Shown: positions 36,846 to 47,787 of the stretch, piece by piece
Layout of the letters: each line of letters opens with the position of its first letter
Position numbering within the stretch: position 1 is the stretch's first letter
Origin: a virus
Length of the DNA stretch: 64,000 nucleotides
Direction: 5' to 3' (one strand)
IMG/VR virus record: IMGVR_UViG_3300032236_000443
Location: 34,100 to 98,099 of that record
Notes under the pieces: generated by a model
The model's input: the letters and a program-made list of their open reading frames with translations, nothing else
What the model was told of the DNA's origin: nothing
The model's database searches: none
Position numbers and translations under genes: made by a program

Positions 36846-37127
36846 TCACGATTCCCACAACTCCTCTTCCTTATGCTGCTCTAATAGTTCAATATTGTGT
36901 TCTGTAACCGTAATAAAGACTTGGAAGCGGCGACCATCTTCCAAAATGACCTCATGCTCAATTTTGTAACCCTTGTTATTAGTTATTTCGACGATATCTT
37001 TATAGGTAACTTGTTCAGCAACGGTCTCTTTACCATCTGAGAACAAAATTATTGCTTTGCGGTTTGGTCCAAAGAAGAAAGTTTTACCATCTTGGGTGTA
37101 TCCAGCAGTATGTGGCTTTAGTTCCAT
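36846..37127 (-). CDS. hypothetical protein (C-terminal EEELWES)
   Basis: First leftward gene; GGAGGG RBS. Confidence 0.65.
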   Translation of the reverse strand: MELKPHTAGYTQDGKTFFFGPNRKAIILFSDGKETVAEQVTYKDIVEITNNKGYKIEHEVILEDGRRFQVFITVTEHNIELLEQHKEEELWES

Positions 37128-38190
37128 CTTTCCCTCCTGGCTTTAGGCTACTGCCTTTACAAGGAAAAGTGAAATTTTAGTTGAGTAGGGGAGGTAGGCG
37201 GCATTTTGGCTATCCGCACCCCCCTGGCAACCTGACAACCTGGCAAATTGGCCTTTCGGCTACTGCCTAGGCTGCCACCTCGCAACCATTCCTCTCACCT
37301 GGCTGGTCATATAGCGAAACACGCTTAACTGTGGGGGTGTTGTGCGCTGGAAAATTTTTAGTTATGTCGCTACTTGTTTTAGAAACTTGTATTAGTTGTT
37401 CTATCTACGCACGAAATAGTTATTTATTAATTGTTTGATAGCGAAATTGATAGCGTGATTAAATAACTTTTGGCTACTGCATTTATTTATTCGTTTGTTT
37501 GTATCAGTAACACCAGACTACGACTATCACTTCGGCGTTGTAATCATGTAATAAATCATTATGTATCACTAGTTATTTACATTGTTAATCACTTACTAAA
37601 TACATTGTTATTAACTTGCATTGTGTATCAATAACTATATGAAACACATTCACTATCAATAATCACAATCAATACTTATATCTATCTATATCTATTCTCT
37701 CTATTAGTTATTGATAAACATTCATTATTAAAAGATAAAGGGGGCGTTGCCCCCTTAAACCCCCTGCGCCTTCTATCTATTGTTATGTAATCATATTTAT
37801 TTAATCTTGTTAATTATCTTTTACATTACTTGCGAATTGTTATTGTCCTGCACTTATATTCTTTTACATATATCTATCTTCTTTTACATATATTTTTCGT
37901 ATCTATCATTCGGATTATTTACTTGCCAAATACAAATCCAAATACCTAATACCAACTTGCTATTGTTATTTAATTGTTTTAGTAATGGATAAACATTGAT
38001 AACTTCTTTATCTTTATTATTCATATTCATTCCAATCGCAATAACATTCATTTAGTTTTTTCATTCCGCAATTTTCACACTCTATTGAAAACTCATTCAT
38101 TCCTTCCCCTTCCTACTGGGATTACTCTCTCTTGGCGAAAATTGTGTTAATACCTGCGCTGAAATAGGCGTGAAATACTGCGTGTTGCCG
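37128..38190. other. AT-rich non-coding divergence region with short direct repeats; candidate origin or genome terminus
   Basis: No credible ORFs; CTTTNGGCTACTGC x3; isolated GC-rich hairpin at 37737-37764; gene orientation switches here. Confidence 0.55.
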
Positions 38191-38192
38191 AC

Positions 38193-38222
38193 TTGCATAC
38201 TTGCCCCCTTATGCCCCATAAT
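38193..38222 (+). promoter_or_regulatory. sigma70/SigA-like promoter for the rightward block
   Basis: TTGCAT-N18-CATAAT. Confidence 0.55.
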
Positions 38223-38228
38223 TGAGCC

Positions 38229-38640
38229 ATGCCACCGAGAGGTGCGCTAAGTCCGAAAGAAGTTTGAGATTTATTTACAACTTCATCTCGTTACGAAAAA
38301 TTATTTACGAACGACTTGAAACTAATCTTGAAATTAAAAACTTCTTTACAAAATAACTTTCGGCTCTAAGAATTCTTACGACTTCTTAATGAGTGGCAAC
38401 TTGCCTAAAACATTCTCATTAAGTCGAGGTAATGGAATTCAATAAGTGAAAAAACTTTCAACGACTTTTCGCCGTTGCAGTATCTAGTTACGAAAAATAA
38501 TTTACGAACTACTTACTTCACAACTTGATTACTTGTTGATAGTAAAAACTTATACGCAAAATAATTTACTAAATACTTTTAGTCAATCACTTGCATTAAT
38601 CGTGCAAGTGGTTGGCTATGAGTAGTTAAACAATTACTCA
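38229..38640 (+). ncRNA. putative ~410-nt structured RNA or 5' leader
   Basis: GNRA hairpin, multiple long stems with G-U pairs, two 39-nt stem-loops with compensatory changes. Confidence 0.7.
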
Positions 38641-38668
38641 ACAACAACAACGAAACGGAGTAACAACA

Positions 38669-38914
38669 ATGGCAACTGCAACTACACAACGCAAAACAAA
38701 GTACGAGCGCAATTACGAAAACAATTTGCGTGATGTTGAAATGACTATCAATGTGTTTCGCAAAACTGACAATGTTGAACGCCTTGTTCATATCTTGGCG
38801 CAATCACTTTCGCCAAATGAATTCAGAATGTTGTTCGCAACTGAATTCGCAAATGTTCCACTCACAGTTCGTTATGTTGATGAGAACGGCGTTGAGATTA
38901 AGGAGAACAACTAA
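38669..38914 (+). CDS. hypothetical early protein
   Basis: AACGAAACGGAG RBS. Confidence 0.7.
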   Translation: MATATTQRKTKYERNYENNLRDVEMTINVFRKTDNVERLVHILAQSLSPNEFRMLFATEFANVPLTVRYVDENGVEIKENN

Positions 38915-39408: not shown

Positions 39409-39684
39409 ATGCGAATTAAAATCAATCGCCAAAAGAAGTTAGACCTGCCAAGTAAATTGCAATCGGTGTTTGAGATTAAAGAAGCAATCGCCTTCTTAGA
39501 ACCCGAACGCACAAGTGACGAAGTGAAAGATAAACTGCTATTCATTCTTACGACAATCGCTGATAGCGAGAAGTTGCAGTTGTTATGGAATAGCACCAAC
39601 GCACTTGCCAATAAGAAGGTTGATGAAGTGTCCGACCTTTACTGCAATTTCTTTAGCCAAGACCACACCGACAACAACAACTAA
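39409..39684 (+). CDS. hypothetical protein
   Basis: AAGGA RBS. Confidence 0.6.
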   Translation: MRIKINRQKKLDLPSKLQSVFEIKEAIAFLEPERTSDEVKDKLLFILTTIADSEKLQLLWNSTNALANKKVDEVSDLYCNFFSQDHTDNNN

Positions 39685-39708
39685 CAACGAAACGAAACGG
39701 AGAACTAA

Positions 39709-41028
39709 ATGTCATACGCAATTCTTATTACTGGTGAAACTTCGGTAGCAGATACTCTCGTACAAATTCTTATCGCCAATCACAACGGAAGCAATCACGC
39801 ATGGACACGAACAACAAATGGTGGTCGTGGTGAAGCGAACGCATGGTTCGACAATGACTATGCAGATGTAATTGCAACTGCAAATGTCACACATATTGTT
39901 GGTGAAGTTCTTTCATCACCACTTACTGATGTTGATGTAAGTGCAATCGAGAATGGAGAGCGACCAACAGTTCTCATTCAGAAACTTACAAAGCAGTTTG
40001 GTTTGCGACATAAGAATGTTGATACAAATAAAACTATTGCTGATGTATTAGTTGAGGTTGATACCATTCTAAAGAACAATCCAAATGATTTAGACAAGTA
40101 TCGTTCAGACGGAAGGAAGGATAAAAGCGTGACCGCAACAAAAACTTTCACACCAACAACGCAGACACCTGCACCACTAATCAAAGTAGAACGAGCAGAG
40201 CCAACAAGTGAAGTAATCGGTAACTACTCAATCAATGTACCTACTAAAGAACAAATCGGTCACTACATAGAGCGCACTCTTATCGGTGGCGTTAATGAAG
40301 TGACAATGTATGACACCGCAAAGAAGTTGAAACTCAATGTTCTTTTAGAAGGCGGTGCAGGTAGTGGTAAGACTTCATCACCAATCAACTATGGATACAA
40401 GCGCAATCAAGGCGTTGTTGTTGTATCAATGTCTGCTGGTATCGAAGTCGGTCACTTCGTAGGCAAGACAATCATTAAGAACAATGGAGAAGTCGGTTGG
40501 GTTGATGGCGTACTTGTTCAATCAATGAAGCGTGGTGACATTCTTGTTATTGATGAACTTGATTTCGCAACGCCAAAGATTATGCAACGACTACAAGATG
40601 TTCTTGCTAATCGCACTCTCACACTTGTTGAGAATGAAGGCGAGGTCATTCATGCACACCCCGACTTCCTTGTTGTTGCAACTTACAACAACGGATACCG
40701 AGGTTCGCAGAAGGTCAATCAAGCAGTTCTTGACCGCTTTAAGATTAAGTTGATGTTCGACTATGACAACACAATCGAGAAGCAACTAATCAAATCACCA
40801 ACACTTCTAACTCTCGCAGAACAAATGCGTGCAGACAGTATTGCTGGTATCTATGAAACACCAATCTCACTTCGCTTGTTGCTTGCGTTCCAAGAACTTA
40901 CAAGCGAAATCAACTACGAGTTCGCAGTAGAGAACTTCTTAATGGGCTTTACTACTGATGAACGAGCAAGTGTGAAACTTCTTTTAGAAGCACACCGCTA
41001 CAACTTGGAAGCAGAACTAACAAAGTAA
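39709..41028 (+). CDS. MoxR/CbbQ/CobS-type AAA+ ATPase
   Basis: Walker A GGAGSGKT, Walker B LVIDE, AHPDF.VVATYN, YRG, AVLDRF. Confidence 0.9.
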   Translation: MSYAILITGETSVADTLVQILIANHNGSNHAWTRTTNGGRGEANAWFDNDYADVIATANVTHIVGEVLSSPLTDVDVSAIENGERPTVLIQKLTKQFGLRHKNVDTNKTIADVLVEVDTILKNNPNDLDKYRSDGRKDKSVTATKTFTPTTQTPAPLIKVERAEPTSEVIGNYSINVPTKEQIGHYIERTLIGGVNEVTMYDTAKKLKLNVLLEGGAGSGKTSSPINYGYKRNQGVVVVSMSAGIEVGHFVGKTIIKNNGEVGWVDGVLVQSMKRGDILVIDELDFATPKIMQRLQDVLANRTLTLVENEGEVIHAHPDFLVVATYNNGYRGSQKVNQAVLDRFKIKLMFDYDNTIEKQLIKSPTLLTLAEQMRADSIAGIYETPISLRLLLAFQELTSEINYEFAVENFLMGFTTDERASVKLLLEAHRYNLEAELTK

Positions 41029-41068
41029 TCCGCAACAAAAATTCGCACACCAACTAGAGAGGGAACAA

Positions 41069-43090
41069 ATGACAACAGTAATTCCTAACTTCTTGCAAGA
41101 GAAGTCTGATGTTGCAAAGCAAGCAGAACAACAGAAGCGCAATCGTCTTAATGGACTTGCAAATGTATTCGCTAGAGCCAATAGCGTTCTTACTGGTCGC
41201 AAGGTAAGTGTCAATGTTGTATCCAAGCCCGATTACAAAGCACCTGCTTGGTCTAGCACAACAGAAGTGTGGCTTAATCTTGCAGAGATTAAAGATGACT
41301 TCTCTGCAAGAAGTTTGGTATCTCATCAAGGTCTTAACTTCCATGAGTTGTCACACCTTCTTTACACACCTCGTAATGGTCATGCACTTGTTAAGTGGGT
41401 TAAAGAAAATAACTATTGGGAAGTATTCAATGCGCTAGAGGATAGTCGTATTGAGAACTTGCTAGTTGGTTACCTTCCAACAACTGCAAATTGGCTTACT
41501 GCAACAATCGCTGATTACTTAATGTCAGACCCAAGTGCAATCGAAACTGCATTACCACTTGTTGCTGGTCGTAAGTATCTGCCAATCGAAGTGCAACAAC
41601 TTGCAGTTGATAACTACAAGTTGCCCGAACAAATTGATGAGATTTATTCAATCGTTAATGAATATATCGGATTAATTTTCGAGGGTGGTTCTGCAAGTGC
41701 TGATGATGTTGAGAAGGCAAAGCAGTGCATTATTGACTTCTCAAATCTAATCAATCAACTTCCACCACTTCCAAATAACGGCGGTAGTGGCGAGGGCGAA
41801 GGTGAAGGCGAAGTTACAACAGTTGTCTATCGCATTAAAAACCCTAATGGTCACAACAACCGACCAGTTGAAGGTTGGGAGAGCAGTAGCGCACGCCCTA
41901 AGAAGCGTGCAGACCAAGAGCGTGACCGCAACAATTCGCCAGAGTGCCCACCAAGAGTGAAGCGAAATGTAAAAGTTGTTGATGTTGAAACAGAAGCAGA
42001 CATTCCCGATACTTCTAAAGAAGGTTCATCAACAACACCAAGCAACAACAAATCAGATGACAAGTCAGATGACAATTCAGAAAGCAACGAAGTTGCGTTT
42101 GATGAATTGCAGTTTGATGATACCGAGTTTGATGATGATGACTTCGACTTCGGTGATGATTACTCAGAAGCAGGTTCTAAAGAAGTTGTGGGCAATCAAA
42201 GCGGAACAACTGGTGACAACAATCAAGTCACAGATGTTCTCAATGATGTTCTCAATGATGTTGTTAAAGAACTTGCTAAAGAAGTTAATCAAATTGCAAA
42301 GCAGTTAGGTATATCTATTGACCTTGACGGCGGTAATGCAATCACACCAAAGAAGGCTAGTTACAACGAAGTTAATTGCCCTGCTGATTTAGTTCTACTT
42401 GCTAAGTCATTCGGTAAAGAGTTAGAGCGTTTGCGTGCTAACTACGAACCTGCATGGGAGAACGAGGTTGATACTGGTCGCTTGAATGTCAATCGTTATC
42501 TACAAGGCGAGGACTTCGATACTTGTTTTGATGAGTGGCACGAAGGCAAGTCTGATGTAACTGCAATCGAAGCAGTTATTCTTTTAGACAAGTCGGGTTC
42601 AATGTCGGGTCGTAATGCTGACGAAGCATACAAATCAATGTACGCAATCAAGAAGGCGTTAGAGAATGTCGAAGCACGCACAAGCGTTGTTCTTTTCGAT
42701 TACTCAACAACACTTCTTTATGGTGCAGATGAGAAGGCTGGTACAACAATTCGTGACGGCGGTGCGAGTGGTGGTACTAATCCCGAACAAGCAATTCTCT
42801 ATGCAAAGCGTGTCCTTGCTGAAACCGATAAGCCAATCAAAGTTCTATTCATGATTACTGACGGCGCATGGGATACCAAAGTTGGTGAGGAAGCAATCGT
42901 TGAAATGCGTAACGCTGGTGTTCTTACTTGCCAAGCATACTTATCACAGTATGACGAACGAGCAGAGAGCGTTGAGAGTTATCGCCACTCATTCGAGTTG
43001 CTTACTCAGATTAAGTCTGCAAAAGACATTCTCACACTAGGCAAAGACTTAGTGCGACTTGCAATCAATCGCAATCTAGTAGTTCGCTAA
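41069..43090 (+). CDS. metallopeptidase-like plus VWA domain protein (CobT-like MoxR partner)
   Basis: HELSH, NALEDSRIE, acidic linker, MIDAS DKSGS, GGT, ITDG. Confidence 0.85.
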   Translation: MTTVIPNFLQEKSDVAKQAEQQKRNRLNGLANVFARANSVLTGRKVSVNVVSKPDYKAPAWSSTTEVWLNLAEIKDDFSARSLVSHQGLNFHELSHLLYTPRNGHALVKWVKENNYWEVFNALEDSRIENLLVGYLPTTANWLTATIADYLMSDPSAIETALPLVAGRKYLPIEVQQLAVDNYKLPEQIDEIYSIVNEYIGLIFEGGSASADDVEKAKQCIIDFSNLINQLPPLPNNGGSGEGEGEGEVTTVVYRIKNPNGHNNRPVEGWESSSARPKKRADQERDRNNSPECPPRVKRNVKVVDVETEADIPDTSKEGSSTTPSNNKSDDKSDDNSESNEVAFDELQFDDTEFDDDDFDFGDDYSEAGSKEVVGNQSGTTGDNNQVTDVLNDVLNDVVKELAKEVNQIAKQLGISIDLDGGNAITPKKASYNEVNCPADLVLLAKSFGKELERLRANYEPAWENEVDTGRLNVNRYLQGEDFDTCFDEWHEGKSDVTAIEAVILLDKSGSMSGRNADEAYKSMYAIKKALENVEARTSVVLFDYSTTLLYGADEKAGTTIRDGGASGGTNPEQAILYAKRVLAETDKPIKVLFMITDGAWDTKVGEEAIVEMRNAGVLTCQAYLSQYDERAESVESYRHSFELLTQIKSAKDILTLGKDLVRLAINRNLVVR

Positions 43091-47705: not shown

Positions 47706-47747
47706 AGAAGGTTAAGTAACTTCTTTAGGTTCATCAGTTAGCACTCA

Positions 47748-47787
47748 GGGGGGTAGGTTGCCAATCGGCAATCTGCCCCCCTTTTTT
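47748..47787 (+). terminator. intrinsic terminator ending the early block
   Basis: GGGGGGTAGGTTGCC-AATC-GGCAATCTGCCCCCC-TTTTTT. Confidence 0.9.

Follow-up and report, generated by a model that had tools for sequence, protein, structure and literature searches.

A long structured RNA predicted at the head of the AAA/VWA operon of an actinophage-like genome

The plus strand between positions 38229 and 38668 of the DNA analysed here very probably encodes a real structured RNA under selection. By "the window" we mean the whole analysed stretch of 64,000 nucleotides, i.e. the bases 34100-98099 of the 98,099-bp IMG/VR virus record IMGVR_UViG_3300032236_000443, a record which has direct terminal repeats. 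The RNA would be the whole untranslated leader (about 440 nt) of a rightward operon. The best explanation we can give of it, and one that has about an even chance of being right, is a leader acting in cis: it would shield a long stretch of untranslated RNA, and the double-stranded core, which has two states, would be a site of processing or recognition, for which RNase III is the first candidate.

In this genome the leftward genes, which include a WhiB-like factor and three tRNAs, stop at 37127 and the rightward genes start at 38669. The gap between them is a divergent intergenic region of 1.5 kb, AT-rich and poor in ORFs. The first gene of the rightward operon (38669-38914) codes for an 81-aa protein of no known family: Pfam, PHROG and the PDB gave no relative of it, and its three-helix model has no significant match in the PDB. 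Besides small proteins without known family, the rightward block contains an AAA_5 (MoxR/CobS-like) ATPase (39709-41028) paired with a VWA (CobT-like) protein (41069-43090) and, further on, an integrase. The AAA/VWA pair (39709-43090) stays linked to the leader. The first strong intrinsic terminator of the plus strand, a 16-bp stem followed by a T-run, is found at 47747-47782 and is the likely end of a transcription unit of about 9 kb. The ATPase has its nearest cultivated relatives in phages of Gordonia and Brevibacterium with genomes of about 90 kb. Taken with the WhiB-like factor and the GGAG-type ribosome-binding sites, these relatives point to an actinobacterium as the probable host, and the 98-kb genome is actinophage-like.

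A promoter had been proposed at the head of the structured RNA in the original prediction. It is indeed of the sigma-70/sigma-A type (38193-38222, plus strand), with hexamers at 38193-38198 (-35) and 38217-38222 (-10) and an 18-nt spacer, and transcription is predicted from this sequence to start near 38229. A promoter of the form TTGnnn-N16-18-nAnAnT occupies the equivalent place in the relatives, about 385-535 nt upstream of the first ORF. We then folded the leader 38229-38668. The minimum free energy of the plus strand is -113.8 kcal/mol, to be compared to -72.8 +/- 5.0 kcal/mol in dinucleotide shuffles (z -8.2), whereas the minus strand gives z -4.0. Controls of equal size gave z -0.5 for the 469 nt upstream of the start site, z -0.8 for the first 440 nt of the downstream coding sequence and z -1.95 for the leftward leader. 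The first two of these values mean that the exceptional structure spans the region from the promoter to the ribosome-binding site. The extent first proposed, 38229-38640, is right for the structured part, which reaches about 38640, but too short for the full functional unit, which runs on to the ribosome-binding site through an unstructured CA-rich spacer (38641-38668) holding the Shine-Dalgarno sequence (38656-38661) before the ATG at 38669. The unit is a 5' leader joined to a ribosome-binding site, and not obviously a free-standing RNA. Its transcription, its start, its processing and its 3' end are all predicted. Two small ORFs with TTG starts (44 and 30 codons) can be read within the leader; in the closest relative, L008, they are disrupted by indels of 8, 6, 2, 2 and 1 nt. 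One can also notice an ATG sitting exactly at the predicted start site, which opens a 12-codon frame (38229-38267) with the look of a leaderless mini-ORF; we rejected this candidate as it is absent in all the relatives.

The leader begins with a small 5'-proximal hairpin, H0 (38231-38247, pairing probability 0.98), whose core is a 4-bp stem with a GAGA loop (38233-38244); this is the GNRA hairpin which had been read directly after the promoter. Folding predicts a small hairpin at this position in 7 lineages, whose stems differ in sequence and of which 4 have loops of the GNRA type. In the relatives it is not always at the extreme predicted 5' end, and this variable position weakens the idea that it protects that end. 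Next comes module 1 (38250-38368), a rod made of a 10-bp and a 5-bp helix (38256-38272 with 38331-38347) and carrying the hairpin P1 (38282-38320) at its tip, then a central irregular hairpin, domain 2 (38370-38440), in which 7 pairs show two-sided changes with respect to L008 and are still paired, and finally module 2 (38442-38553), a paralogue of module 1 with the hairpin P2 (38479-38517) at its tip. Every helix listed beforehand appears in the minimum-free-energy fold. The duplication of a module of 110-130 nt also stands: the two modules, of about 120 nt each, have 78 identical positions. Likewise P1 and P2, noticed earlier as two 39-nt elements with compensatory changes, are paralogues, 91% identical over a 33-nt core; their 17-nt tops are nearly identical, differing at one base, and their stems differ by four compensated pairs. 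A single base difference makes the 9-nt tops 38296-38304 (P1) and 38493-38501 (P2) perfect complements. Kissing of the two loops was considered and rejected: the tops of L008 are merely self-complementary, and those of L023 are identical and not complementary.

The tops of the P hairpins change from one lineage to another. In L008 both are swapped for an unrelated self-pairing sequence while the stems are kept; L023 has two hairpins, 170 nt apart, which share a 100% identical 21-nt top on completely different stems; and in L035 a stem of the window type carries yet another tip insert. L015 is without the second P hairpin, and the second copy was also not seen in several other lineages. The tops thus look like lineage-specific recognition elements presented on hairpins. 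An A-rich motif had been counted four times in the leader. We found three strict copies of it, the fourth being a loose one, and none outside the leader on either strand of the 98-kb genome; a scan of IMG/VR for the exact motif with the loop of the window gave no match. The A-rich sequence itself is not the conserved feature. The proposal of a multivalent sponge binding some protein through A-rich loops is not supported by this comparison, as the motif is not conserved in L008 and as nine lineages share nothing more than the two short words, X and Y, described below.

Homologues of the 81-aa first gene are found in IMG/VR and in freshwater metagenome contigs, all of them behind a long non-coding stretch. 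The leaders of the relatives measure about 385-535 nt, and in 10/10 full leaders folded the plus strand has z between -4.9 and -8.9. Their sequences diverge quickly: the leaders of the window and of the L002 type can barely be aligned, while the adjacent proteins are about 80% identical. The closest leader is that of L008 (87% identical; its contig ends inside module 1). When the fold of the window is laid on it, 77 of 100 aligned pairs are unchanged and 23 are changed; among the latter, 9 have two-sided changes and remain paired, 7 are kept via G-U and 7 are broken. The broken pairs are mostly situated at hairpin tips which re-form differently, and none of them is A-C, which means that there is no wobble signal from the minus strand. 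In the leaders of group C (L011, L013, L042 and L045) we counted 103 consensus pairs, with compensatory changes in 25 of them, including a long-range helix in which 8/8 pairs covary. Such changes along the leaders imply selection on the pairing of a single-stranded molecule of the plus strand, over the whole leader. The covariation looked for in homologues is therefore present, and, together with the G-U pairs and the difference between the z values of the two strands, it agrees with the function at the RNA level, on the plus strand, that had been proposed. As far as the sequences go, their rapid turnover shows that shape matters, without telling what for.

These comparisons bear directly on whether the region could instead be a DNA-level element, that is, a replication origin, a set of operators or tandem promoters, whose repeats would be protein sites or -10-like boxes. 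The region does lie in a 1.5-kb AT-rich divergent intergenic stretch, the A-rich motif resembles a -10 box, pairs of promoter-like hexamers occur at 38274, 38345 and 38536, and the phage encodes an integrase, which makes an immunity-type control region conceivable. But the compensatory changes preserve pairing and not the sequences of half-sites, the G-U pairs (one of them conserved) exist only on the plus strand, the z values and the model scores are strand-asymmetric, and the structure starts exactly at the promoter. Moreover, L008 departs from the window by 2 nt in the distance that separates the -35-like from the -10-like boxes and has lost one "-10", and promoter-like matches number 8 where 7.0 are expected by chance. 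We consider a DNA-level element very improbable. The narrower idea of the A-rich boxes as tandem promoters was rejected, since neither their spacing nor their sequence is conserved in L008 and since the promoter-like counts are at the level of chance.

The sole element common to every lineage is a core of about 75 nt, located just before the ribosome-binding site (38569-38642 in the window). It consists of a motif X (38571-38579), of a hairpin A (38580-38618) and of a hairpin B (38619-38640). Hairpin A had been described as a 15-bp stem with two G-U pairs; the stem is genuine, and it has in fact 17 bp (38580-38596 with 38602-38618) with 3 G-U pairs. Hairpin B has 9 bp. The words shared by nine lineages are two 7-9-mers, X (around UAAAUAC) and Y (around GUAGUUA), which flank hairpin A, Y being at the same time the 5' arm of hairpin B. 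Hairpin A itself is free in sequence and strongly constrained in pairing. In a MAFFT alignment of 13 sequences, 12/14 of its pairs show two-sided changes, and 97% of the cells pair, against 25-52% when the partner is slid. With 20 distinct sequences, fitted to a covariance model and including one row which is a reverse-strand match, 13/14 pairs covary, 97.8% of the cells are paired against 23-46% with a slid partner, and one position retains a U-G pair in 17/20 rows. The covariance model R1 scores 64.6 bits at the core of the window, which is its only plus-strand copy in the 98-kb genome; the lone other match below E=0.01 in that genome is the same locus read on the opposite strand. More generally the core scores 65-80 bits on the plus strand, against 19-45 on the minus strand. 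A scan of IMG/VR for X and Y separated by a variable gap, made independently of any protein, gave 23 loci. The covariance model confirmed 14 of them; the nine others, which do not match the model, are probably chance hits.

The core can adopt two conformations. The pairing of X with Y lengthens hairpin A, which has 16-22 bp across lineages, into a rod of 27-32 bp with one conserved mismatch, an A opposite a G; alternatively, Y pairs with Z and forms hairpin B. The two conformers lie -2.2 to +4.2 kcal/mol apart in 13/13 sequences. One column of Y covaries with both alternative partners, which represents essentially one evolutionary event. Neither conformer is followed by a U-run. Both the plain and the extended hairpin A offer the near-continuous double strand of about two helical turns expected of an RNase III site.

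We propose that, downstream of the promoter and of the 5' hairpin, the three rod-like domains, two of which are paralogous, fold during synthesis and would keep some 400 nt of untranslated RNA compact, a shape which would protect it from nucleases and from the loading of Rho. The X/A/B core would then stand beside the ribosome-binding site, in front of the open CA-rich tail bearing the Shine-Dalgarno sequence, either as the long rod (A with X:Y) or as the two abutting hairpins A and B. As a two-state processing or recognition site it would set the stability and the translation of the first cistron. Its likeliest partner would be a factor specific for double strands, for instance the RNase III of the host; it is the length of the helix which suggests RNase III, or any other partner. 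The paired P hairpins would offer genome-specific loops to some factor. Simple masking of translation in cis is not supported: the full-leader fold of the window pairs the Shine-Dalgarno sequence with 38250-38255, yet when 18 nt of coding sequence were added to nine leaders, the Shine-Dalgarno sequence was no more paired than in shuffled-leader controls. As to a riboswitch, its ligand-binding core would have many invariant nucleotides in distant relatives, whereas nine lineages share just the X and Y words; this tells against it.

Leaders of this general kind are known in other phages. In lambda, the leader of N, the first early gene on the leftward side, carries nutL and an RNase III site. 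The leader of the window resembles it by the long untranslated stretch between the early promoter and the first early cistron, and by its hairpins, with a long double-stranded segment near the ribosome-binding site which could be processed (a prediction in our case). It differs from it in having no boxA and no conserved N-like first gene, in being about twice as long, modular and internally duplicated, in showing no similarity of sequence or of model, and by a host which is probably an actinobacterium. The T7 early leader has the RNase III site R0.3 ahead of gene 0.3, and owes its length to three tandem promoters. It shares with the window several hundred untranslated nucleotides, the last of which form a long irregular hairpin just ahead of the first ribosome-binding site; in the window, unlike in T7, promoter-like matches inside the leader are at chance and not conserved, and the cleavage is putative.

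The put RNAs of HK022 are two adjacent stem-loops of the nascent early transcript, whose shape matters. Since the original prediction compared the RNA with put, we weighed processive antitermination, in which the leader would act either put-like, directly on RNA polymerase, or nut/rrn-like, through Nus factors, against Rho or intrinsic terminators over the operon of about 9 kb. The leader does sit in the predicted nascent early transcript, and its hairpins A and B abut with a 0-nt spacer and preserve their shape, so that with their conserved flanks they recall the two-stem design of put. A long C-rich untranslated leader (C exceeds G in 9/9 lineages) would otherwise invite Rho. However, no intrinsic terminator of the plus strand is predicted between 38.6 and 47.7 kb that a put-like element would have to override, and this tells against the put-like reading in particular. 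Some 350 nt separate the predicted start from the core, which immediately precedes the ribosome-binding site and is not near the promoter as in HK022; it is embedded in about 440 nt of structured RNA, and the polymerase of the host belongs to another lineage. Nor is there a conserved N-like first gene: a lambda-type N/nut system would have there a small RNA-binding protein matched to the hairpin loop, whereas the first genes behind the core are unrelated to one another. For the nut/rrn-like variant, the 9-mer 38340-38348 matches at 6/9 bases the rrn boxA quoted in PMC2724277. This boxA-like candidate was rejected: it is deleted in L008 and is common genome-wide. We judge antitermination distinctly unlikely. 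Neither an attenuator nor a need to read through intrinsic terminators is evident, no plus-strand terminator being predicted inside the leader or anywhere before 47747. Concerning the 9-mer itself, ACTTCTTTA, we counted 104 copies in the genome against 23 expected with one mismatch allowed (for example at 42178, 44718, 44739, 44859 and 46116). They are mostly antisense to genes, largely via Lys-Glu-Val coding on the opposite strand; among the exact in-gene copies listed at 38-51 kb, 6/10 read xxT-AAA-GAA-GTx (Lys-Glu-Val) in the sense strand.

To which genes, then, does the leader belong? Behind the core, the newly recovered contigs have first genes of unrelated kinds, which code for a 57-aa protein and for two larger proteins; in all, at least four unrelated first genes stand behind the same RNA core, which is placed 3-40 nt before the Shine-Dalgarno sequence of whichever gene comes first. 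In the relatives the genes for the AAA ATPase and for the VWA protein follow within about 0.2-2.8 kb downstream of the core, the same synteny as in the window, as had been anticipated for the MoxR/VWA block. The first gene varies while AAA/VWA is constant; hence we concluded that the RNA belongs to the head of the AAA/VWA operon and does not go with the 81-aa gene, whose product is, for the same reason, unlikely to be an autoregulator. Among cultivated phages, Gordonia phage Chidiebere has a matching layout: a 1.17-kb gap holds a good promoter and a leader of some 810 nt, and two small genes precede AAA and VWA. The fold signal of its leader is weak (z -1.9). This leader is syntenic with that of the window and not demonstrably homologous to it. 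The gap (L027:3860-5026, i.e. NC_071005.1 55693-56859) is unannotated and contains a strong promoter-like site; inside the predicted leader one can notice repeats at a distance of 180 nt, and a series of hairpins precedes the Shine-Dalgarno sequence of gp70.

The constancy of this linkage raises another possibility, namely that of a trans-acting non-coding RNA or ribonucleoprotein: a sponge, a decoy, an anti-defence RNA or an RNA partner of the AAA/VWA proteins, synthesised as the 5' portion of the early transcript and possibly freed by processing at hairpins A and B. Such a role would suit an RNA which is large (about 385-535 nt), strongly selected for structure, the first to be made from the promoter, and which keeps the AAA/VWA pair while the adjoining gene changes. 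Near-identical tops on compensated stems in P1/P2, in L008 and in L023 suggest that a specific factor reads the loops, and identical loops on differently built stems could fit a trans-acting ribonucleoprotein equally well. Against it, we found no terminator and no conserved 3' end before the ribosome-binding site, the proposed A-rich binding motif is lost even in L008, the lineages have two 7-9-mers in common where known large functional RNAs have conserved cores, and the second P hairpin is absent from L015 and unseen in several other lineages. No evidence in support of an anti-defence RNA, which had been suggested, was found. All this makes a trans-acting RNA unlikely. A bolder reading, which is doubtful as well although slightly less so, is that of a hitherto undescribed class of large riboregulators or RNA subunits of phages, in which X/A/B would be a switch, the genome-specific loops of the paired hairpins would be bound by a factor evolving along with them (perhaps the AAA/VWA proteins, or the RNA polymerase of the host) and the 5' GNRA hairpin would dock into the rods to give a compact fold.

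As first supposed, the leader matches no known RNA family. At the gathering score Rfam 15 matched only three tRNAs in the window, and a permissive Rfam scan of 37100-38720 gave at best 21.5 bits, against a threshold of 48 bits (E about 0.5-7). Searches of cultivated phages by blastn and tblastn gave no relative, either for the leader or for the 81-aa gene, and a search of 185,579 species genomes gave no prophage copy. None of the catalogues searched contains the family, but structured early leaders as a kind of element are already known from phages. Bacteria and phages have few structured RNAs longer than 400 nt, most of them still without an assigned function. GOLLD and ROOL, which are in Rfam, resemble the present RNA in being longer than 400 nt, borne by phages, found by covariation and without known function; the RNA of the window differs from them in that it matches no Rfam model, has very few conserved nucleotides and is joined to a ribosome-binding site. 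The candidate structured RNAs which were mined from IMG/VR in PMC10690425 are unnamed and measure 29-151 nt; this size sets them apart from the leader, a part of which they may overlap.

The leader thus defines a well-supported uncatalogued family of at least 20 distinct sequences, from viral and freshwater metagenome contigs, which marks the head of a widespread and unexplained phage pair, the MoxR/CobS-like ATPase with the VWA protein. Its core is compact, at about 75 nt, has two folds of nearly equal energy and can be put to the test, and the existence of cultivated Gordonia phages with a syntenic long leader opens the poorly understood early-gene control of actinophages to study at the bench. 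If the RNA turned out to be only a stabilising leader, it would be a useful annotation and not a surprise.

Finally we must note several features around the leader. Directly upstream of the -35 box of the leader promoter, an inverted repeat TGCGT-5 nt-ACGCA is found at L011:1752-1768, at L023:1512-1530 (in the version CGCGT/ACGCG) and at 5450-5468 of L042 (oriented); it is a candidate operator. The window has at the equivalent place two direct copies of GCGTG (38169-38186) and no inverted repeat. The left half of the intergenic region contains three copies (37141-37159, 37253-37271 and 37467-37485) of a repeat of about 13 nt with the core GGCTACTGCC, and two or three copies occur at the same relative place in L011, L013 and L023; this repeat is probably a DNA-level site or an element of a leftward promoter. 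A lone GC-rich hairpin stands in the AT-rich region at 37738-37756. It is conserved in L002, L004, L011, L021 and L042, often has a UUCG loop when read on the plus strand, and is a terminator of the minus strand according to our scan. A 55-codon ORF (37884-38051, minus strand) points away from the leader promoter and could be a small gene with divergent transcription; a minus-strand ATG (MTNKL...) occurs at the equivalent place in L035 and L041. Lastly, the ACGAAACGGAG string found in the ribosome-binding region of the first gene occurs again in that of the AAA ATPase gene (39684-39708).
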